Assembly (NCBI RefSeq): GCF_003991155.1
Contig: NZ_CP031293.1
Length of the DNA stretch: 64,000 nt
Origin: Escherichia coli
GTDB lineage: Bacteria > Pseudomonadota > Gammaproteobacteria > Enterobacterales > Enterobacteriaceae
Direction: 5' to 3' (one strand)
Shown: positions 28,730 through 38,648 of the stretch, one piece after another
Layout of the letters: every line of letters begins with the position of its first letter
Position numbering within the stretch: the first letter of the stretch is position 1
Notes under the pieces: generated by a model
The model's database searches: none
What the model was told of the DNA's origin: nothing
What the model saw: the letters and a program-made list of their open reading frames with translations, nothing else
Program-made: the position numbers and the translations under genes

Positions 28730-29491
28730 TCAGAGCGCATCAAGGAAATGTGGAACAAAACTGCCTGGCCCCTCGCTTCTGGCAACTGCGCGTTCTCCGG
28801 CTTGTTTCATCCAGTGACAGGCAGATGCGATATTTTCCAGCGTATCGCCTGGTAGCGCACAACAGGCAGCGACAACCGCCGATAATGCACAGCCAGTTCC
28901 TACCACTTTGGTCATTAGCGGATCGCCACCGTGAATGCCAACGATACGATGTCCATCGGTAACATAATCCACCTCGCCAGTGACCACGACGATTGCGCCA
29001 GTTTCCCGTGCCAGTGTTTGTGCAGCAGGTATCGCGTTAGCTGCGGCATCAGTGGTATCCACTCCCCGTCCGCCATTAGCAACGCCAGCTAATGCCATGA
29101 TTTCCGAAGCATTACCACGTATGGCGGTTGGCTTATGAGACAGAAGTTCCAGACAAAAACGGCGGCGATAATCGAGTGCACCCACCGCTACTGGATCAAG
29201 CGTCCAGGGTGTTTGAGAGCGTTTTGCCTGTTCAACGGCGGCACGCATCGCCTGTGCGCGTGGCTGCGTCAGCGTGCCAACGTTAATCAGCAACGCACTG
29301 GCGATTGCCGCAAACTGACTGGCCTCTTCGGTTTCGATGACCATCGCTGGCGATGCACCGAGCGCCAGTAAGGTATTGGCAGTAAAGGTTTGCACCACAT
29401 CATTGGTCATACAGTGCACAAGGGGGGAATGTTTGTGAAAAAGATGTAACGCGTGCGCAGATTGCGCGGAACTCAGCAGGTCGACTTGCAT
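28730..29491 (-). CDS. thiM: Hydroxyethylthiazole kinase ThiM; C-terminus ends early at an in-frame TGA
   Basis: 253-aa ORF; the TGA at 28730-28732 is followed in frame by QLTQEVQA and a second TGA that overlaps the thiD ATG. Confidence 0.9.
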
Positions 29492-29625
29492 AGTTTGCTC
29501 CTGCCATAACGTGAAGAAGCAATGACCTGGTGGTCCGTGACTTCCCTACGCTGGCATTATCCAGATCAGGTGATACGGGTATTTCTCAGCCTTCACGCAG
29601 AAGGGCACCCCGAGTCGTTTGGTTG
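29492..29625 (-). promoter_or_regulatory. TPP riboswitch (thi-box) leader of thiMD
   Basis: Minus-strand leader reads AACCAAACGACTCGGGGTGCCCTTCTGCGTGAAGGCTGAGAAATACCCGTATCACCTGATCTGGATAATGCCAGCGTAGGG, the thiM aptamer as I recall it, followed by the expression platform up to the thiM ATG. Confidence 0.85.
29544..29625. repeat. 82-bp direct repeat, left copy (attL-like); lies within the thiM riboswitch aptamer
   Basis: Perfect 82/82 identity with 37276..37357. Confidence 0.9.
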
Positions 29626-29837
29626 AATCTCTATATTTTGTGCCAGCTTAGGGGAAGTGGCTTGCAGATGCAAGCTCGCCTCCATTAATTGCTTCTTCTC
29701 TGTGTACCCCATTTTGTACCCCATATCAGAAATGAAAAAGAAACATTTAACATCTATCATTCAGATGATAAAAACTATTGATTATCTTAATTTGCTAATT
29801 TATATTATTTATCTAAATTTGATAGGTGAGATAAAAA

Positions 29838-30077
29838 ATGACAGAAACCCAGATCTACGAGAACATTAAGCAAGCCATTAGCAGCGCACCACGAAATAGC
29901 CAAACGATGGAAATGCACCTCCAGATGATCAAATATGCTGACCATCTGAAAAAGGTTACGGCAAAAGAGTTTTGTGAAGGTGTAGGACTTAAAGCCAGCT
30001 TTGGTACAGAGTTCAGCAAAATGAGAAATCTTACCGAGCGACTCAAAGCTGCTGGACTTGACACCACGAAGTTATAA
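29838..30077 (+). CDS. Hypothetical small protein (island)
   Basis: 79-aa ORF with SD-like GGTGAG upstream; no recognised motif. Confidence 0.4.
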   Translation: MTETQIYENIKQAISSAPRNSQTMEMHLQMIKYADHLKKVTAKEFCEGVGLKASFGTEFSKMRNLTERLKAAGLDTTKL

Positions 30078-30242
30078 AAAACAAATCATCAATATATTAT
30101 TTTTGTTTTCCAGACTTACTTGCATATGTTTCTACGAGCATAAAAAACAACAACCACCACATAGCTATTACCATAATAATGTTTTCCTTTTATATTAAAC
30201 AGAGAAATAGAATTAGAGCGTGGAATAGATGAATTCTATTTT

Positions 30243-30488
30243 CTATAACTTCTTGAGGTTGAATGTAGAAAAAGACAGCTCTTTCATTTCAATAACACCG
30301 AAATTTGATAGCTGTTTCAGCCAGAATTTTAAACCTGACTCAGAGCAACCTGCTCGATGTAACACATCGCTATATTTTAGCGGTGTTGGCTTTCCTTTAT
30401 AGAGGTAAACAAGCGTTTCGTAGGTGTGTTTTCCGGTGTCGTTACACTGAATGCGGTCTACTTGATTTTTTACTAAATATTGGATCAT
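30243..30488 (-). CDS. Hypothetical small protein, possible winged-helix (island)
   Basis: 81-aa ORF with AAGGAGG upstream, directly after the 239-aa gene stop. Confidence 0.45.
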   Translation of the reverse strand: MIQYLVKNQVDRIQCNDTGKHTYETLVYLYKGKPTPLKYSDVLHRAGCSESGLKFWLKQLSNFGVIEMKELSFSTFNLKKL

Positions 30489-30499
30489 AGTCCTCCTTA

Positions 30500-31219
30500 T
30501 TAAAATGGAATGTCAAAATCGTCCTCTTCTGTCTCAGGTATCGTGTATATATGTTCTCTTCCTGTAAATTCAGAAACCACTATTGAAATTAGCCTGTATG
30601 CCTCTATTTTATCGCCCTGCGTTTCAGCTAAAGCCCACTCAAGGGCTGCTTCTGTTGGCTGTCCATTCGGTTTGCAAATAGTGACACCGCCCCAAGGAAG
30701 CTCTGTTTTTTCCTGCTGAATAGAGCGTGTTGTTTCTAGTGTTTTTTTATCTTCCGTAGGGGGAAGCTGTTCAGGAACAGCTTTAACAGTAGATACTTGC
30801 TCTGTCTGTGGCTTTTCTGCATTTACAGAGGCTTTCGCTTCTCTTGGTGCTGTAATATGTGCATCTGTAAAGGGTAATGCTTTATAGAGTGATGTTTGAC
30901 CGTGGCGTGCCTCTACAGAAAGAACTCCCATATCAACAAACATATTTATAATATTGCGTACCTGACGATCACTAACCATTCCAATATTAGCTAATGTTTT
31001 TTGAGTAGCGTAACATTCTTGCCCTTGTTCATTGAATCCAGCTATATAGCTATAGATTTCAACGGCTGGCAGTGTAGCGGTGTATTCATTACCAGATGGT
31101 GAGTACCATTTTTTAAACATCTTCAACCATTGCTCAACAACTACATATTTTTGTTTACCATCTTTCTGATTTAGACATTTGGCTTTCGCTTCGGCAATTG
31201 TTTTGATATTTTTGATCAT
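30500..31219 (-). CDS. Putative replication-initiator-like DNA-binding protein with SSB-like acidic C-terminal tip (…EEDDFDIPF)
   Basis: 239-aa ORF with strong AAGGAGG SD; N-terminal wHTH-like segment, P/E/K/T-rich linker, C-terminus DDFDIPF. Confidence 0.6.
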   Translation of the reverse strand: MIKNIKTIAEAKAKCLNQKDGKQKYVVVEQWLKMFKKWYSPSGNEYTATLPAVEIYSYIAGFNEQGQECYATQKTLANIGMVSDRQVRNIINMFVDMGVLSVEARHGQTSLYKALPFTDAHITAPREAKASVNAEKPQTEQVSTVKAVPEQLPPTEDKKTLETTRSIQQEKTELPWGGVTICKPNGQPTEAALEWALAETQGDKIEAYRLISIVVSEFTGREHIYTIPETEEDDFDIPF

Positions 31220-31343
31220 TTAGTTCCTCCTTTGTAAGGACTGTAATTAGTAGTTCATTAACAAGTTTTGGAATTGATTTCCCTTCTGCCTTTGCGCGAT
31301 TTAACAACGCGTTATAAGTTGCAGAGTCAAAATTAATATTCAT
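31155..31343 (-). CDS. Ribbon-helix-helix (CopG/Arc-like) small DNA-binding protein
   Basis: Start at MNINFDSATYNALLNRAKAEGKS with GGAGAGGAGA SD; overlaps start of the Rep-like gene. Confidence 0.55.
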   Translation of the reverse strand: MNINFDSATYNALLNRAKAEGKSIPKLVNELLITVLTKEELNDQKYQNNCRSESQMSKSERW

Positions 31344-31365
31344 TTGGTTTTCTCCTCTCCTGTTA

Positions 31366-31548
31366 TTATTCTTTCTCTGCTTCTGCCTTACGCAGTTCAT
31401 CAATAATCTTGAGTGCATCGTCAAAGCATTTTTCACGCTCTGGATAACCTCGACTCCTTGCCATATTACGATTCATTACTACTTGATGTCGTGTTAACTC
31501 ACCTTTTTTAAATGCCTCTACGACGTGTTCCGGTATAAACCATTTCAT
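31366..31548 (-). CDS. Hypothetical 60-aa protein, first gene of the island's minus-strand operon
   Basis: ATG preceded by AAGGAG at optimal spacing; basic/acidic helical sequence. Confidence 0.5.
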   Translation of the reverse strand: MKWFIPEHVVEAFKKGELTRHQVVMNRNMARSRGYPEREKCFDDALKIIDELRKAEAEKE

Positions 31549-32323
31549 AAAAAACTCCTTATTCAGTTAAAAGAAAAACACCTTGCAAGCCTGACGGCTT
31601 CAAAGTGCATTGATTTTGATTATTTAGAGAAGAATGTTTTTCTGTCCCTCTAGTACCTATTATTACATATAAATAAACATTTGTCAATATCTTTTCATAA
31701 AAAATCAGAACCTTTTCATGCACTTACATTTTTTCTTAGCGATTCGTGCTCTCCTGTGTAGTGCTATTCTTCATTACCAGCTAAAACGCTCTAAAACGCG
31801 TTCTAACGAAGTTTTGATAAAAGCAATACATTCTCTTATGTAATGGCTGTTTAGCTCGCCAGAGGCTTATTTAAGTGGCTTATTTTGTATTTGTTAGATG
31901 ATGATAGATATAAAACAGAGAGTTCTTAGATTAGTTACTTTATAAAACGCTCTGTAAAGCCCTGTAGTGAGTTTATATATGTAGGCAAAGCGGTTTCCAT
32001 TCTCTACCCTGCTTAATGCTGTTAGAGAAGCATTTAGACCCCTTATTTTTAATTACCTAAAGTATCCTCTATACATCTCTGTTATGAAACACCTCTGAAT
32101 CCTTCATAAAACACATTATGACGCAAAGAACACTTTTCTAAGGTGATTCCCTTCCTGAACTCTGTTTCTTGCGTCAGAGAGCTACACAGAGAGCTTATAA
32201 AGCTATTATTAATAATAAAGTAGATAAAGTAAGTAAGATAAGTAAGAAGATTAACTAAGATAGATAAGATTAATAAGATCAGAATTCTCTTTCGGTGTCG
32301 CCTCTGGCTTTTCCACCGAAAAC

Positions 32324-33019
32324 AATTACACGACTACAGAATGTAGGAAGTGAAATTGTATTGAGGCTTAGTGAAATTACACGAGGAAAGCAGAGTGTAA
32401 TTGAGCTTTAGCCGCTCTCTCTTCGAGTAATTACACAACTACAGAGAATAACAGAGTTATTAAATGTAGGAGGGTAATTAAGAGTTAGAGAGAGTTAACA
32501 CGTAAGCAATCAGATGATTGGTTAGGTGATTACTCTTACTGCGCACAGCGCAATAGTATTCCTTCGTGGGCGTTACCGCCAACGATAGTTACACGAAGAA
32601 AGTAACGCTTTGCTTTCGGTGTGAGCGGAACGGGCCAGCCACAAAGCCCGAAAGGTAGCGGAGTAAGGCTGCTTGCCAGAGAGTGGAGCTAACGCCGGAA
32701 GGCAAAAGATCATATATATAGTATAAAGAATATTATTTAATTATAGTATTGGTGGAACTCATTACCTAAGGTAAACCGGAGACCACTTCCAACGGTTAGG
32801 CAACCACTTCCAATTGTGTTATTTCCCCTTTTACCCTAAGTAAATTTTAGCCTTTCGTTACATCCATTTATCACATAGCACTTACCCTGTGTAAATCATA
32901 GAATAATGCTCTCTATTCCCTGTGTAATTCCATACTAAAAAATTCAATGAAAAGTAGTTTAAAAGTGCAATGTTAGCTTTCTTCACTTTTACATCACTTT
33001 CGCTGCGCCTTGTGTAATG
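32324..33019. repeat. Iteron-like repeat cluster (AATTACAC core, both orientations) in a 1.75-kb non-coding region
   Basis: AATTACACGACTACAGA at ~32324 and AATTACACAACTACAGA at ~32429; shorter copies at ~32375 and inverted at ~32396, ~32885, ~32918, ~33008. Confidence 0.6.
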
Positions 33020-33312
33020 CGGCTTACAGAGCACTATCAGAAATTATTGATCAAAAATCAACCTATTATTTGTCGAACAAGTTTTCTTTAATGCAACAAA
33101 AATTATTTTTTCAAAATAAACACACAATTTAATAGCTTGCTAATTTTACCAAAATGTAACTACATGATTCTCATGCAAGAAGTGTAGTGATAAGGCAGGC
33201 TAAATCACCACACTAAAAAACTTCGAATTTCGTAGTGAAAAAAGTACTTTACACACCTAATCAACACGCCCAATAATCACTACACACAAATCAATACAGA
33301 AGAAAAAAGAAG

Positions 33313-33864
33313 ATGGCTAATATTGGATACATTAGGGTATCGACTGTGCAACAAAACACAGACCGTCAATTAGCAGGAGTAACTCTTGATAAAGTCTTTG
33401 AAGATAAAGCGTCAGGCAAGAACACTCAGCGCCCACAGTTTGAGGCAATGATGAACTATGTGCGGGAGGGTGACGTGTTACACGTCCATAGTATTGATCG
33501 CCTTTGTCGTAATACAGCCGACCTTCTGGCAACTGTAGAGCAATTAACAAAGCGCGGCGTGTCTGTGCATTTCCATAAAGAAGACTTTAAGACAGGAAAG
33601 AACTCTCCCGCAGGGAATATGATGCTCACAGTTCTTGCAGCAGTGGCACAAATGGAACGTGAAATGATGCTTGAGCGTCAACGTGAAGGGATCGCCGCAG
33701 CCAAGGCCGCTGGACGTATAGCAAAACGTGGTAATGGAAAAGCAATTGATCGAGCGGGAATTGCTGCCGCTCTCGCGAATGGTGGCTCAATTCGGAGCGT
33801 AGCAAAAGATTTCAGTGTCAGCACGCAGACGGTGCAACGTATCAAGAAAGAGCAGGTGGCGTAA
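33313..33864 (+). CDS. Small serine recombinase (resolvase/invertase family)
   Basis: 183 aa; N-terminal catalytic motif IGYIRVSTVQQNTDRQ with the nucleophilic Ser; C-terminal HTH. Confidence 0.85.
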   Translation: MANIGYIRVSTVQQNTDRQLAGVTLDKVFEDKASGKNTQRPQFEAMMNYVREGDVLHVHSIDRLCRNTADLLATVEQLTKRGVSVHFHKEDFKTGKNSPAGNMMLTVLAAVAQMEREMMLERQREGIAAAKAAGRIAKRGNGKAIDRAGIAAALANGGSIRSVAKDFSVSTQTVQRIKKEQVA

Positions 33865-34030
33865 TGCCTCCTTGATATTTGACAGGGACGGTCGGCAAAA
33901 ATCGGGGCTTGCTGATCTCAGCGTTGAGCGGTTCTTGCAATGGTGCCTAGGTGCTCGCTTGTATTCCCCTTCGATAATCACCACTAAGCCACTTATTGCC
34001 TTGTGGAGTGGCCCGAAAATTACTGATATC

Positions 34031-34531
34031 TTATTGATTCAGTCGATCCCATTTAACCGCAGATACAATTCCCCAATTACCACTAGCATTAGGCCTACGC
34101 CACTTCGCGGTTTCCATTCCACGAAGGTATTCGAGAGCTTCATTGAACGAACTGAAACGTTTCTGGGCTGATTTTTCCCCTACTCTAAACGAACCATCGC
34201 GAGTACTTGCCAATCCTGGATGAAAACACGACCCATCTGCAGCATAAGGAACAAGTACCTCCTGATCATCAGGTTTCCTTGAATCAGAAGCCAGTAACTG
34301 CCAAGGCTCAATACGCAAAGCGTCAGCCAGAACCTCAATTGCATCAAGAGATGCATTAGAGCAACCACGCTCAATTCGACTCATATAACTACGTGCAAAA
34401 CCACACCGATCTGCAAAGGCCTCTTGGCTTAAGCCAATAGCTATACGGAACTCTTTTACTCGTTGTCCAAAAAGGTATCTCAGATTCTTTCGCATGGCAC
34501 AAAGATGCAATTTGACGCACCAATTAACCAC
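34031..34531 (-). CDS. XRE-family HTH regulator with uncharacterised C-terminal domain
   Basis: Cro/C1-type HTH (GLSQEAFADRCGFARSYMSRIERG); likely start at internal Met (34495). Confidence 0.7.
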   Translation of the reverse strand: MVNWCVKLHLCAMRKNLRYLFGQRVKEFRIAIGLSQEAFADRCGFARSYMSRIERGCSNASLDAIEVLADALRIEPWQLLASDSRKPDDQEVLVPYAADGSCFHPGLASTRDGSFRVGEKSAQKRFSSFNEALEYLRGMETAKWRRPNASGNWGIVSAVKWDRLNQ

Positions 34532-34605
34532 GCACTAATCGTGACATTTTGAATCAATCATGTATTATTAGCATCACCATCCATTTGACACACCAAGGGA
34601 GACAA

Positions 34606-34953
34606 ATGAAAAAACTAGTATTTGCCGCTTTGTTAATTCCAGTGATGGGCCACGCCACAACCTTTTCCTGTAAAGCAATACAGGAAGGTCATATTGACTC
34701 GGGAAGTCAGAAAGTTTCTGTAGATTCAACTTTTGATATACAAGATAAAAAAATGACCATAAATCTTGGCGGTAAAACTTGGAGACTTGATTTGGTAGGT
34801 CAAAAAAGCATCGCAAAGATGTATGCTACACCTGACGGAGGGGTTGCAGCCACATACATTGACAATGGCAGTATACCGATATTTGTATTACGCCCTTCTA
34901 ATCCCGATGGGGAGATGGCTGTTTACACATTGAGTATGTGTTCTGAAGTATGA
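34606..34953 (+). CDS. Small secreted protein of unknown function
   Basis: Start at MKKLVFAALLIPVMGHA (signal peptide) with AAGGGAGA SD; divergent from the XRE gene. Confidence 0.6.
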   Translation: MKKLVFAALLIPVMGHATTFSCKAIQEGHIDSGSQKVSVDSTFDIQDKKMTINLGGKTWRLDLVGQKSIAKMYATPDGGVAATYIDNGSIPIFVLRPSNPDGEMAVYTLSMCSEV

Positions 34954-35030
34954 TTGATCGGCGTGATATTCACGCCGTTTTTGGGGAAATTTGTATATTG
35001 AAAAATATAGAAATAGAACTTTTATCAAGC

Positions 35031-35756
35031 CTATTTATTAACAGGTAGTAATGTCAGATCGCCATAATGGGCTTGTCTATGGCAATTAGGACATAATGCA
35101 ATAGCATTTTCCACAGAGTCCTCCCCCCCCTTTGAAAGCCACTCAATATGATGAACTTCTAGAAATGGAGTACCATCTTCCTTTAGAAAAGGAGCATCTC
35201 GCTTACAATATTGACATTTTCCATTTGCACTCAAAAGAACTTCAGCAACTACATATGGGCTTCGTTTATAAACTCGTGTTGTTACTTCGATTAGTTCCGG
35301 GATTTTACTTTCTGTCGCTAAAATTTGCTTTCGTTCCACTGAAGATAATTTTGCAGCCGTCTCAACAGCTTCTTCGAAAACCGATTTTACTTGACGATAA
35401 CGCCACATCCCTTCTAAATCCTGGTATAATTCCCAAATACCGTGCACAGATGGTTGATAGATTTCAAAAATATTTCCACGCTTGAACAATCGGTCATACT
35501 TATGATGCCGATGAGTTACATCATCAGTTCGTCGGGCAGTTTTGTTGAAACTCCAGTAGCTCCGCTTACAATTAACTGTATTAGCAATTAAATTGAGCCA
35601 AGTATTATCTTTATAAGATGGAAATAGCTTTCTAAGATAATCATCTACCTGCTTAGCCGTTGCAGCCCCACCAAACTGATTAGCAATTATCTGTATGGTA
35701 ATAGCTCTTATCGGTTGATCGCCATACTTGTATTTTTTGCCTAAATTTTTAACCAT
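35031..35756 (-). CDS. HNH endonuclease, McrA-like C-terminal nuclease domain with distinct N-terminal domain
   Basis: C-terminal CQYC...EVHHIEWLSKGG...NAIALCPNCHRQAHY zinc-finger HNH motif, similar to what I recall of E. coli McrA; ~150-aa N-terminal region unrecognised. Confidence 0.75.
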   Translation of the reverse strand: MVKNLGKKYKYGDQPIRAITIQIIANQFGGAATAKQVDDYLRKLFPSYKDNTWLNLIANTVNCKRSYWSFNKTARRTDDVTHRHHKYDRLFKRGNIFEIYQPSVHGIWELYQDLEGMWRYRQVKSVFEEAVETAAKLSSVERKQILATESKIPELIEVTTRVYKRSPYVVAEVLLSANGKCQYCKRDAPFLKEDGTPFLEVHHIEWLSKGGEDSVENAIALCPNCHRQAHYGDLTLLPVNK

Positions 35757-35884
35757 AGAAGACTCACTAAGCCTAAATTCATCTTAAGTTATTATTGTAA
35801 ATTAGTTGTGAAAATTTTTGATCTCAGACAATAAAAATCTACAAATTATTAGCTGGTTATACACTAAGAAGGATACACGAATAA

Positions 35885-37222
35885 CTAAGTCTCCCAACAA
35901 AGACCATCGATCACATAACAAACGGTGGAAAGTGGGAATGTGTGCAGATAACGCTGGGTAATCCCTACTCCACTCTTTTCATGACCTACCACCTGTTGCA
36001 GATGCGCCAAATTACTCACCCAACCAGCTAAACAAGTAGAAATCATAGTATGCCGGAAACTATGCACCAAGCGCCGCTGCCCATAATCATCAAGATAAGG
36101 AATATCAAGCTGATCACGAACATCTGAAAGAACTTTACCTATCTTTGACATATTTCGACCTGAGACTTCCGAAAAGATTTTCTCTTTCCATTGGCGGTTA
36201 ACAAAATCCAGAAACCCCCACTCAATCAGTTTGGGATGAATCACTACCTGTCTTGTAGCATTCTCAGTTTTACCCAGCCTTCTTTCCGCGATCAGAAGAT
36301 AGTGCCGCTGGCTATCTTCATCAAATTTGATCTGCGACTTCTCCAGTTTAGCAATCTCACCTCTTCTGGCTCCTGTGTACGCCAACAACAAAGTGATCCA
36401 CTTCTGCCATCCATCAGGCTGCTTTAGTGCCCATCCTACAAATTTTTTCATTTCTGCTGCACTGTATGCACCAAACCTAGCTTTGGATGGTGCCGCTACT
36501 ATTCCATCAGTCGGAGACTTAGATAGAATATCTTTGTTTTCAGTCAGAAATGTTTTGAATAACGATTTGTAGATTTTAAGGTGCTTATGTACAGCCTCAG
36601 CACCAACTAAATCCTCTGGCAGCACATCATCACATTCGATTAGTTGCTGAATAGTCATTGACCTATACGGTTGCACTACACGCTTTGGTAAGTTTTCGAC
36701 AGTTTCCATTACTCGCTTAATATCTTGTTTGGTGATTGCCGTTACGTCTGTTTCTTTTCCCAAGACAACAAGCAATACCTCCATATAACGCTCATTTGCC
36801 ATTGAGATCGATTTTGTCCAATTTCGACCTCTTTCCTCCTTGTACATAGCCCACGCATCAGCAAGTGTTAGCACCTTTTCCGGTTTGGCTGGTGGTTGAA
36901 GCTGCAAAACTTCTTTAGAAATATTGTTCAATTGCTGAGGGAGTGGCAACGGAATCATTACGTTACGTGACGAAGCGATCAAGTTTGAAACAAACTTATT
37001 AAATTGTGGCAACGGAGTAGCGAGTGATTTAACGAAAGGAATGTGCGGAGTAAGGCCAATCATCAACGCCGATGCTTCGCGATAACTGTCAGTAAAAAGT
37101 GATTTTTTGTATATCCGACCATCCGAAAGCCGGATTTGTAGATAGTAATTACCGTTTCGCTGAAATGTGTATGGGAGAGTTCTTGACCTCATAAACGCCC
37201 CCTTTTTGTACCTTAACAGCAT
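35885..37222 (-). CDS. Tyrosine site-specific integrase
   Basis: 445 aa; C-terminal catalytic region with HSFRHT and GITQRYLH; starts 53 bp from the right direct repeat. Confidence 0.85.
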   Translation of the reverse strand: MLLRYKKGAFMRSRTLPYTFQRNGNYYLQIRLSDGRIYKKSLFTDSYREASALMIGLTPHIPFVKSLATPLPQFNKFVSNLIASSRNVMIPLPLPQQLNNISKEVLQLQPPAKPEKVLTLADAWAMYKEERGRNWTKSISMANERYMEVLLVVLGKETDVTAITKQDIKRVMETVENLPKRVVQPYRSMTIQQLIECDDVLPEDLVGAEAVHKHLKIYKSLFKTFLTENKDILSKSPTDGIVAAPSKARFGAYSAAEMKKFVGWALKQPDGWQKWITLLLAYTGARRGEIAKLEKSQIKFDEDSQRHYLLIAERRLGKTENATRQVVIHPKLIEWGFLDFVNRQWKEKIFSEVSGRNMSKIGKVLSDVRDQLDIPYLDDYGQRRLVHSFRHTMISTCLAGWVSNLAHLQQVVGHEKSGVGITQRYLHTFPLSTVCYVIDGLCWET

Positions 37223-37275
37223 GATTTATGGTCAAAAAGAGATACAACCACATAATTTTCAAGACTATTTTGGCC

Positions 37276-37357
37276 CCCTACGCTGGCATTATCCAGATCA
37301 GGTGATACGGGTATTTCTCAGCCTTCACGCAGAAGGGCACCCCGAGTCGTTTGGTTG
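37276..37357. repeat. 82-bp direct repeat, right copy (attR-like); duplicate of the thiM aptamer segment
   Basis: Identical to 29544..29625; followed by native sequence leading into rcnR. Confidence 0.9.
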
Positions 37358-37445
37358 CGATGATAAATCGCAAAGGAGGATGGTAATGTCCAGCGCACGC
37401 GTTGTAAACGAGGAAAAACGGCAGTTTTACAATCGCGTTAATAAA

Positions 37446-37718
37446 TTATTTGATATATGAATCCAGCACCTTCAGAACGACATCCAGATCTTCTTCACGT
37501 TTTAGCTCATCCCCCTGGTGAACGATGTGTTCCGTCAGATGACCTTTAATCACTTCCCGCATCAGACCGTTTACCGCGCCACGGATAGCAGCAATCTGTT
37601 GTAAAACTGCAGCGCATTCGTGCGGCTCGTCGAGCATTTTCTTGAGCGCCACGACCTGGCCCTGAATCTTACTGGCACGCGCTTTCAGTTTCTGTTTATC
37701 ACGGATGGTATGAGACAT
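37446..37718 (-). CDS. rcnR: Ni/Co-responsive repressor RcnR
   Basis: 90-aa ORF, CsoR/RcnR family; divergent from rcnA. Confidence 0.9.

Positions 37719-37838: not shown

Positions 37839-38648
<810 letters not shown>

Follow-up and report, generated by a model that had tools for sequence, protein, structure and literature searches.

Two islands assigned to thiamine pyrophosphate (TPP) riboswitches are already on record: the TIGER supplement names Eco824.15.TPP_RNA and Kox2.11.TPP_RNA, and that study's main text never uses the term "riboswitch" (Mageeney et al. 2020, PMC7192596). These elements, 11-15 kb long and placed at the TPP riboswitch of Escherichia coli and Klebsiella oxytoca, are known by name only and very probably belong to the family described here. 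The rcnR-thiM locus itself has been tabulated as a 7,956-bp interval with eight genes, classed as RM_type_IV and given the mobile-element type "None" (Hochhauser 2023). In E. coli B, the genome island adjacent to thiM carries EcoBLMcrX, and neither an integrase nor a riboswitch is mentioned for that island (Fomenkov et al. 2017, PMC5487053). Beyond such list entries and locus tables, we found no paper that discusses a riboswitch as a bacterial attachment site (attB). Here we analyse 64,000 nt of E. coli (GCF_003991155.1, contig NZ_CP031293.1), referred to as the window, whose positions serve as coordinates throughout, and which holds a 7,650-bp island between thiM and rcnR.

We consider it very likely that this island is a site-specific integrative element, one of an Enterobacteriaceae-wide family, that restores the thiM riboswitch it splits. 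In the proposed mechanism, a tyrosine integrase would take the 3′ part of the thiM TPP aptamer as attB, and the island's own attachment site (attP) would hold a thiM leader of its own, made up of a promoter-like block and the 5′ portion of the aptamer as far as the P4/P5 region. Once the island has integrated, thiMD would again be preceded by an intact riboswitch, with the 5′ two-thirds contributed by the island and the P1 3′ strand and expression platform by the host. The host promoter and host aptamer would be shifted by ~7.7 kb and end directly upstream of the integrase gene (int). This amounts to the split-gene restoration practised by tRNA- and dusA-targeting islands, here applied to a riboswitch. 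An initial annotation of the window had called a riboswitch attB unusual, and unusual it is, but not unrecorded, since the TIGER supplement lists TPP_RNA islands.

A split and probably restored thiM riboswitch

A repeat search across 28.5-38.5 kb revealed an 82-nt direct repeat, 100% identical between the thiM-proximal copy at 29544-29625 (attL) and the promoter-proximal copy at 37276-37357 (attR), with a spacing of 7732 bp; a perfect repeat of this length in 64 kb is far beyond chance. On one side of the island lies thiM (minus strand, end at 29491), directly left of the first repeat, and on the other rcnR (37446-37718, minus strand), directly right of the second, and the G+C content falls from ~55% to 31-45% between the repeats. 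Both copies match the TPP aptamer on the minus strand (Rfam RF00059, gathering score 54.3). The aptamer before thiMD, at 29526-29622, is complete and scores 71.2 bits with P1 intact, and the displaced host aptamer upstream of int, at 37259-37354, reaches 61.3 bits and has two non-standard pairs in P1. RefSeq likewise annotates two TPP riboswitches at the occupied site.

To define the empty site, both flanks were joined through one repeat copy, and this query was searched in 5,426 complete E. coli genomes. The thiM-rcnR site is contiguous in 4,720 of them, K-12 MG1655 included, and split in ~700; the island is found at a coverage of at least 80% in 80 genomes, mostly at ~100% identity. The initial annotation had described an integrase-bounded insertion in the thiM riboswitch, bracketed by perfect 82-bp repeats, and had stated that thiM and rcnR are adjacent in K-12, all of which is borne out. 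The BLASTN comparison it proposed, of empty site and insert against E. coli genomes, establishes the empty site as the norm, so the island is not DNA that most E. coli hold. Neither are the repeats an assembly duplication, since the island recurs with both copies in 80 genomes and analogous islands occupy other genera. Length differences of ~15 bp in the empty-site alignments arise because a repeat within rcnA differs in length among strains: this 12-nt periodic repeat (GCACGAGCACGA...) lies in the gene interior (38186-38257) and encodes the His/Glu-rich loop of RcnA.

The integrase (435 aa, 35885-37192, minus strand; PHROG 1, E 9e-27; Pfam PF00589, E 4e-6) contains the motifs ARRGE, HSFRH, GHEK and RY, so that the R, HxxR, H and Y are all present. 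Its start had initially been placed 53 bp inside the right repeat, which is true of the longest open reading frame (ORF; 37222), but RefSeq and all homologues agree on a start at 37192, 83 bp from attR. We identified 538 homologues at E <=1e-20, many of them 78-83% identical, in Cronobacter, Enterobacter, Citrobacter, Klebsiella and E. coli. Contigs were fetched for five homologues, from E. coli, Klebsiella, Enterobacter, Cronobacter and Citrobacter, and junctions were compared: a TPP aptamer (Rfam) lies just upstream of int in all five, and thiM forms the opposite end wherever the contig reaches it (Citrobacter). A wider scan with one genome per species yielded 16 integrase loci, from genera including Lelliottia, Enterobacter, Erwinia, Citrobacter, Silvania, Cedecea, Pantoea, Mangrovibacter and Kosakonia. 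The aptamer sits ~85 nt upstream of int in 15 of the 16, and the exception is a truncated gene. The search for other elements in TPP riboswitches, which had been suggested at the outset, thus uncovered an integrase clade that is tied to this site across more than ten enterobacterial genera, its members being 64-83% identical to the window integrase. To judge from these loci, the insertion site is a property of the integrase family and not of one strain.

Four of the retrieved loci (L037, L038, L042 and L049) have an island-type left arm (CCCTAA.CTGGCA...) upstream of the int-side aptamer instead of the host promoter, as expected for tandem arrays, and L049 carries an int fragment upstream as well. 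Minimal islands, with only ~2-3.5 kb between attR and thiM, occur in Enterobacter cloacae M-7 and in Mangrovibacter (loci L043 and L049).

Comparison with sister islands separates the host-derived from the island-derived halves of the leader. At attR we find the host version, whose 5′ flank and aptamer 5′ half are genus-specific, next to int-side DNA that is nearly identical among E. coli, Enterobacter and Cronobacter. At attL, the sister islands carry an island-specific 5′ flank and aptamer 5′ half that reads AATCTTCATGACTCGG... with the P3 stem GCCCCATCAATGATGGGC; the E. coli host version reads CAACCAAACGACTCGG... with P3 GCCCTTCTGCGTGAAGGC. The P3 stem of the sister islands thus differs in sequence from that of the host, yet it is fully base-paired through compensating changes. 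These chimeric attL aptamers score 70-75 bits, equal to or above native ones, partly because the UGACU strand of the island pairs perfectly with the AGUCA of the host in P1. By the same logic, the 5′ part of the window aptamer at 29526-29622 would be island-borne, and its P1 3′ strand and expression platform would be host DNA. The attL copy keeps the native thiM platform, whereas the attR aptamer lacks both the native P1 3′ strand and the expression platform.

The attL/attR identity in sister islands extends over only ~48 bp (GGCTGAGAAATACCCGTATCACCTGATCTGGATAATGCCAGCGTAGGG), and the earlier reading of the 82 bp as a long recombination core does not survive, as this is all that the sister islands have in common with the host. 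The 82 bp would instead comprise the island's own leader and aptamer 5′ part, and the window repeat runs to this length because the copy carried by the island happens to match the E. coli allele exactly. In strain A10, which has the same island type, the two copies differ at three positions. Since attR is of host type, attL is of island type and ~48 bp are common to both, recombination is placed in the 3′ part of the aptamer. For the more distant integrases (64-71% identical), homology stops at GCGTAG, and the attP side presents GGATAATGCCAG and CTGGCGATTATCC, two inverted 12-13-mers around the 7 bp CGTAGTC, at the 3′ homology edge. This arrangement resembles the classic core architecture, located at the P5/P4 3′ strand. 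The crossover would accordingly be expected in roughly the final 45 nt of the aptamer, with the overlap region probably at GCGTAG(GG) in the attB stretch CTGAGAAATACCCGTATCACCTGATCTGGATAATGCCAGCGTAGGG.

The left (P) arm (29626-29837, minus strand) combines a conserved block, a candidate thiMD promoter and two tandem arm-type repeats. The block adjoins the aptamer, reads (GCTTGC-N4-GCAAGC)-ACTTCCCCTAAGCTGGCA.AAA.TATAGAGATT, and is conserved among islands whose integrases are only ~78% identical and whose other non-coding DNA is unalignable. Across islands it shows a promoter-like arrangement of TTGCAT or TTGCTT, a 17-nt spacer and TAAGCT, which in the window corresponds to a predicted thiMD promoter with TTGCAT at 29673-29668 and TAAGCT at 29650-29645. 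The native thiM promoter-like site found by the promoter scan (TTTACA, 17 nt, TACCAT; 37380-37408, minus strand) now points through the displaced aptamer into int. In O157:H7 and E. coli B, int-less remnants leave the same island-derived sequence before the thiM aptamer. Both lineages are thiamine prototrophs; because they keep the island-derived thiM leader, an island-side promoter must function, and it would drive thiMD.

Two tandem GGGGTACA repeats of arm type occupy ~29703-29722. GGGTACA occurs only twice in 64 kb, as the tandem pair in the attL arm, and Citrobacter has three copies at the same place. The related search with GGTACAAAA gave two minus-strand occurrences in 64 kb, one lying ~80 nt outside attL and the other, just upstream of int, ~65 nt outside attR. 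The latter copy (37204-37212) falls within the int leader and right (P′) arm (37193-37275, minus strand). With one set per arm, these GGTACA-type repeats appear to behave like arm-type integrase sites.

Island genes and a putative replication core with links to phages

The gene adjoining int is HNH in the window, GmrSD in strain A10, AIPR plus HNH in an 11-kb sister island, SIR2 in Klebsiella, and a methyltransferase plus an ATPase in Citrobacter. Since the gene at this position varies among relatives, we regard the position as a slot for defence cargo. The HNH gene occupying this variable slot in the window (35031-35756, minus strand; PADLOC mREase_IV PDLC03656, E 1.9e-23; HNH PHROGs) encodes a predicted type IV, or modification-dependent, restriction enzyme. 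It pairs an HNH domain with the mREase_IV match, and the PHROG and NCBIfam annotations contain no cognate methyltransferase in the island, a combination that typifies type IV restriction. The island would have an anti-phage role. In outline, it combines this variable defence slot next to int with a backbone in which RptR-like and XRE regulators accompany a lambda-O-like Rep, an iteron-rich putative origin region and a serine recombinase. The cargo named in the initial annotation, namely the integrase, HNH, XRE, serine recombinase, Rep-like and RHH-like proteins and the iteron region, was recovered in full.

Beyond the defence slot, the island encodes a 115-aa protein with an N-terminal hydrophobic signal-like segment (34606-34953, plus strand; PHROG 35183, E 9e-26) and an XRE-family helix-turn-helix (HTH) regulator with a C-terminal extension (34031-34495, minus strand, RefSeq coordinates; PHROG, NCBIfam and PADLOC HTH matches), a candidate island repressor. 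A small serine recombinase of the resolvase/invertase family follows at 33313-33864 (plus strand; PHROG 125, E 2e-61; Pfam Resolvase in homologues). We considered whether it inverts a segment between the inverted repeats 31208-31226 and 33040-33058 and rejected this for those sites, as the inverted junction occurs in 0 of 539 matching genomes. The leftward operon opens with a 60-aa protein (31366-31548, minus strand; an ORF that is also a RefSeq coding sequence), followed by an ORF for a ribbon-helix-helix (RHH)-like protein of 62 aa (31155-31343, minus strand), which is 100% identical over 166 nt to bas60_0101 of phage PaulScherrer. The Rep-like initiator has a lambda-O/DnaD-like N-terminal winged helix (30500-31219, minus strand; PHROG replication-initiation families, E 4e-7 to 1e-5), and downstream of it lies an ORF, also in RefSeq, for a hypothetical 81-aa protein with no family match (30243-30488, minus strand).

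The first gene at the attL end encodes an RptR-like regulator of 79 aa (29838-30077, plus strand; Pfam HTH_73) that aligns with RptR (PDB 9R2Z) over 77 of 79 residues at E 4e-32; Pfam PF24718 is matched in its homologues. No TAGCTA operator is present between attL and this gene, and the nearest, at ~30162, is downstream of it. RptR-type operator control, in which TAGCTA overlaps the gene's own promoter, was rejected on this ground. Unlike the characterised RptR locus and the sister islands, the window locus (29778-29806 and 30162) has no such operator upstream of the gene and no defence gene downstream. The regulator may be an orphan, or its target may be a different promoter in the island. 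In the thiM gene of this genome, a premature stop at codon 254 (W254*, 28730-28732) removes the last nine residues, and other carriers of the same island have the full 262-aa thiM (L001). The normal thiM stop overlaps the thiD start, so that translational coupling to thiD might be affected by W254*.

Between the leftward operon and the recombinase gene, ~1.76 kb without a credible ORF (31549-33312; no annotated ORF of at least 50 aa) forms a putative origin region. Sequence and motif counts place AATTACAC iterons at 32324-32440, and inverted CCYTGTGTAAT repeats at ~32870-33020 and AT-rich tracts are also present. A strong predicted sigma-70-like promoter (TTGACA, 17 nt, TG-AATAAT; 31659-31687, minus strand; 11/12 consensus matches) faces the Rep operon. 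The region further contains a GC-rich structured element of ~235 nt (32481-32715, plus strand) with a minimum free energy of -81.3 kcal/mol and a z of -4.44 against shuffles. Homologues with a variable middle domain occur in sister islands (L007 18440-18685, minus strand) and in the E. coli B remnant (L031 11549-11835), and compensatory changes affect 10 of 34 predicted pairs, with about three lineages sampled. The element has no Rfam match and could be an origin-associated structure or an RNA. As for known RNAs in the 1.76-kb region, an Rfam search with E as high as 10 gave matches at chance level only, and neither tRNA nor tmRNA genes are present.

Much of this backbone is not confined to thiM. 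Window DNA from ~30125 to 33880, a span that takes in Rep and the small ORFs as well as the non-coding region and the recombinase, is 88-94% identical to DNA elsewhere in more than 1,000 E. coli genomes, and this core module is present in 1,173 of the 5,426 complete genomes (about a fifth), with up to five copies per genome. At thrW, the same core, non-coding region included, is found at 91-94% identity, joined to a different integrase and three genes (L005 2364-6272 in E. coli O26 RM10386; L006 2355-6271 in FDN-11). Products of these thrW genes match phi92 gp135 (tube initiator, E 1.6e-79), gp134 (tape measure, E 1e-38) and gp124 (capsid, E 1.5e-6), and the thrW elements look like an undescribed satellite-like family.

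A few Justusliebigvirus (phi92-like) virulent phages in turn carry DNA that is 97-100% identical to parts of the Rep-like and RHH genes. The matches cover window positions 30752-31124 and 31191-31356 and lie in phages inny (MN850601; L019 2140-3243) and PaulScherrer (MZ501100; L020 2468-2653). Among 50,697 phage records, a Rep-like homologue is present in only four distinct phages, all of them Justusliebigvirus. In inny, gp184 joins the captured Rep winged helix to a second Rep-type winged helix and a C-terminal MUG113/T5orf172-type nuclease domain of the GIY-YIG superfamily, and has the same architecture as Odn of phage ICP1 (PMC8263062).

Mobility, decay and alternative readings

Several observations weigh against an active, target-restoring element. 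The crossover is bounded to the 3′ ~45 nt of the aptamer by attL/attR polymorphisms, not mapped to a point, and the polymorphic position in GTAYYAC is of host type in attL as well as in attR, a pattern that one fixed crossover leaves unexplained. As for the candidate thiMD promoter, its match to the consensus is weak, and the promoter scan did not pick it up. No excisionase was identified in the island, and it has no transfer or packaging genes. An exact-pattern search of viral and metagenome contigs for the attP junction or excised circle, which is a weak test, returned 0 matches. Finally, most carriers of the exact island have near-identical flanks, pointing to a mostly clonal spread.

Taken furthest, these points would make the island an inert relic, inherited by descent only, with repeats that merely record an insertion made long ago. 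Of five carriers checked, four, which come from four countries, have flanks ~100% identical to the window. Moreover, of the ~700 occupied E. coli sites only 177-224 retain the integrase, so decay is frequent, and the O157:H7 and E. coli B remnants fit such a history. All genes of the window island are nevertheless intact, its repeats are perfect and its arm repeats are in place. In strain PS10-3, an island that is 99.8% identical sits between flanks that are only 97.0% and 92.6% identical, which indicates an independent horizontal acquisition into a divergent chromosomal background. Cargo has been exchanged between otherwise near-identical islands, and one sister island recurs almost unchanged in three genera (E. 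coli, Enterobacter and Cronobacter); both argue for activity. We therefore regard the relic explanation as very improbable. Examples of int-less remnants are those at the thiM leader of O157:H7 strain 9234 (L002 18901-21270) and in the E. coli B derivative Rosetta2-DE3 (L031 8781-12500), where RptR-like and DUF6998 genes mark the remnant as the EcoBLMcrX locus.

If the island does move, a conjugative plasmid might transfer it as an integrative mobilisable element, with an origin of transfer (oriT) in the 1.76-kb region and with Rep and the recombinase serving plasmid-like maintenance. The Rep/iteron/resolvase set is plasmid-like, the structured non-coding region is large, and part of the core does occur on a 166-kb E. 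coli plasmid (H153). Against this, neither a relaxase nor a coupling protein nor any known mobilisation family turns up in the PHROG, NCBIfam and Pfam annotations, 72,556 plasmid records include no free plasmid form, and the links to phages are specific and recent; we judge mobilisation of this kind unlikely. Coverage of the island stays at or below 26% in every phage and plasmid record. A further proposal concerns the displaced aptamer, which stands ~85 nt upstream of int in every family member, in the integrated state and, by construction, in attP. Were it functional, thiamine status would set integrase expression and hence island stability, and a conserved hairpin in the int leader, formed by pairing of CUCUUUUUG with CAAAAAGGG, could mask the int Shine-Dalgarno sequence and start codon. 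The arrangement is automatic, however, since int adjoins attP. The attR aptamer has lost its P1 3′ strand with no conserved complementary strand to replace it, the hairpin (consensus fold A3) shows almost no covariation (covariation term -0.57) and overlaps a likely arm-type DNA site, and no link from aptamer to hairpin is apparent. Control of int by TPP through a substitute P1 was rejected for these reasons and is kept only as a low-probability idea, which we think improbable.

A broader possibility extends the restoring-element interpretation instead of competing with it, namely that the island is a phage satellite, or a PLE-like parasite or defence element, of phi92-like (Justusliebigvirus) virulent phages. 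Infection would then trigger excision and Rep/iteron replication, phage particles would carry the island to new cells, and the thiM islands would be versions without the structural module that their thrW relatives kept. The core shared with the thrW elements and their phi92 gp124, gp134 and gp135 homologues, the restriction of Rep-like homologues to Justusliebigvirus, and the Odn-like gp184 of inny all favour it. The window island has an integrase, an XRE regulator, a lambda-O-like Rep and iterons, with no primase or helicase, each function being predicted from sequence. On the other hand, its PHROG and NCBIfam annotations show no capsid, terminase, packaging or redirection genes, so that none of the packaging or capsid-redirection genes looked for in satellites (terS, ppi/rpp, sid/psu, cpm or an own capsid) is present. 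Neither attP nor island sequence was found in viral contigs, we found no literature linking satellites with phi92-like phages, and the phage-island similarity could reflect gene flow without parasitism. We accordingly advance the satellite interpretation only tentatively. The same caution, short of an even chance, applies to the proposal that the family as a whole parasitises or blocks phi92-like (Stephanstirmvirinae) phages, with thrW relatives that build particles from capsid, tape-measure and tube-initiator copies of their own, thiM islands as defence-loaded derivatives, and phages that counter with Odn-like gp184. Replication by Rep and iterons after excision, and a dependence on a helper for transfer, probably a phi92-like phage, would both be expected under the restoring-element interpretation as well. 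The suggestion in the initial annotation of a small plasmid-like or satellite-like element fits the Rep/iteron/resolvase module and the phage links now found.

Comparison with described islands

Bulk catalogues already attest to the existence of the element. What is new is the proposed target-restoring mechanism on a riboswitch, in which promoter and aptamer would be regenerated; our literature search returned no description of this mechanism, of an island-borne aptamer, of the breadth of the family or of its phage links. The target-restoration rule known for split tRNA genes would thereby extend to a metabolite-sensing riboswitch. Natural chimeric riboswitches, with an island 5′ half and a host 3′ half and platform, would control thiamine genes in many Enterobacteriaceae and offer a natural experiment on aptamer modularity, and inferring thiM regulation only from K-12 calls for caution. 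The rcnR-thiM defence hotspot, previously recorded without a mobile-element type, gains an explanation. The phage links suggest a possible, so far unstudied conflict of these islands with phi92-like phages, a group in use in phage therapy collections. If the conflict is real, it would constitute a second, independent arms race of the PLE/ICP1 type, in E. coli.

A close counterpart of the window island is that of E. coli B, with which it shares the site, the RptR-like gene at the left end (ECD_02033) and the island-derived thiM leader. ECD_02033, a homologue of the RptR-like regulator, lies upstream of EcoBLMcrX, and the gene after it encodes a DUF6998 protein, an order also seen in the sister islands. 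The E. coli B island is an int-less remnant of a sister island; the window island, by contrast, does not have the EcoBLMcrX/DUF6998 gene and carries HNH beside int. The classical r6/EcoBLMcrX restriction system of E. coli B is thereby placed on a remnant of this island family. RptR-regulated defence islands (Zhang et al. 2025, PMC12255303) similarly have a small RptR-family regulator as the first gene of a defence locus, but here there is no TAGCTA operator upstream of the regulator and no defence gene after it.

[quoted passage not shown] The origin-directed nuclease Odn of ICP1 destroys the origin of the PLE satellite (Barth et al. 2021, PMC8263062). There, a small integrative island with a RepA/iteron replicon is set against a lytic phage that encodes a chimera of the island's Rep DNA-binding domain and a T5orf172-type nuclease (PMC8263062); here, the window island with its putative Rep/iteron replicon and the phage with gp184 would be the counterparts. 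The window island differs from PLE in being known from sequence alone and in lacking packaging genes, and neither its Rep family nor its integrase is related to the PLE counterparts.

For the mechanism, the nearest parallels are islands that rebuild the gene they enter. Genomic islands and prophages inserted at the dusA 5′ end (Farrugia et al. 2015, PMC4482086) likewise rely on a dedicated tyrosine-integrase clade for one conserved locus, and by replacing the 5′ stretch that they displace they keep the gene working. They target a coding 5′ end, whereas the target here is a non-coding riboswitch aptamer, a folded RNA domain would be replaced, and the sister islands contain a divergent, compensated helix. 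Islands in tRNA and tmRNA genes (Islander, PMC4383910) share with the thiM island a crossover in a structured RNA gene with dyad symmetry, a regenerated target and a displaced fragment that marks the far end. They supply the 3′ part of the RNA; the thiM island would supply the 5′ part together with a promoter, and as a result the host promoter reads into int.

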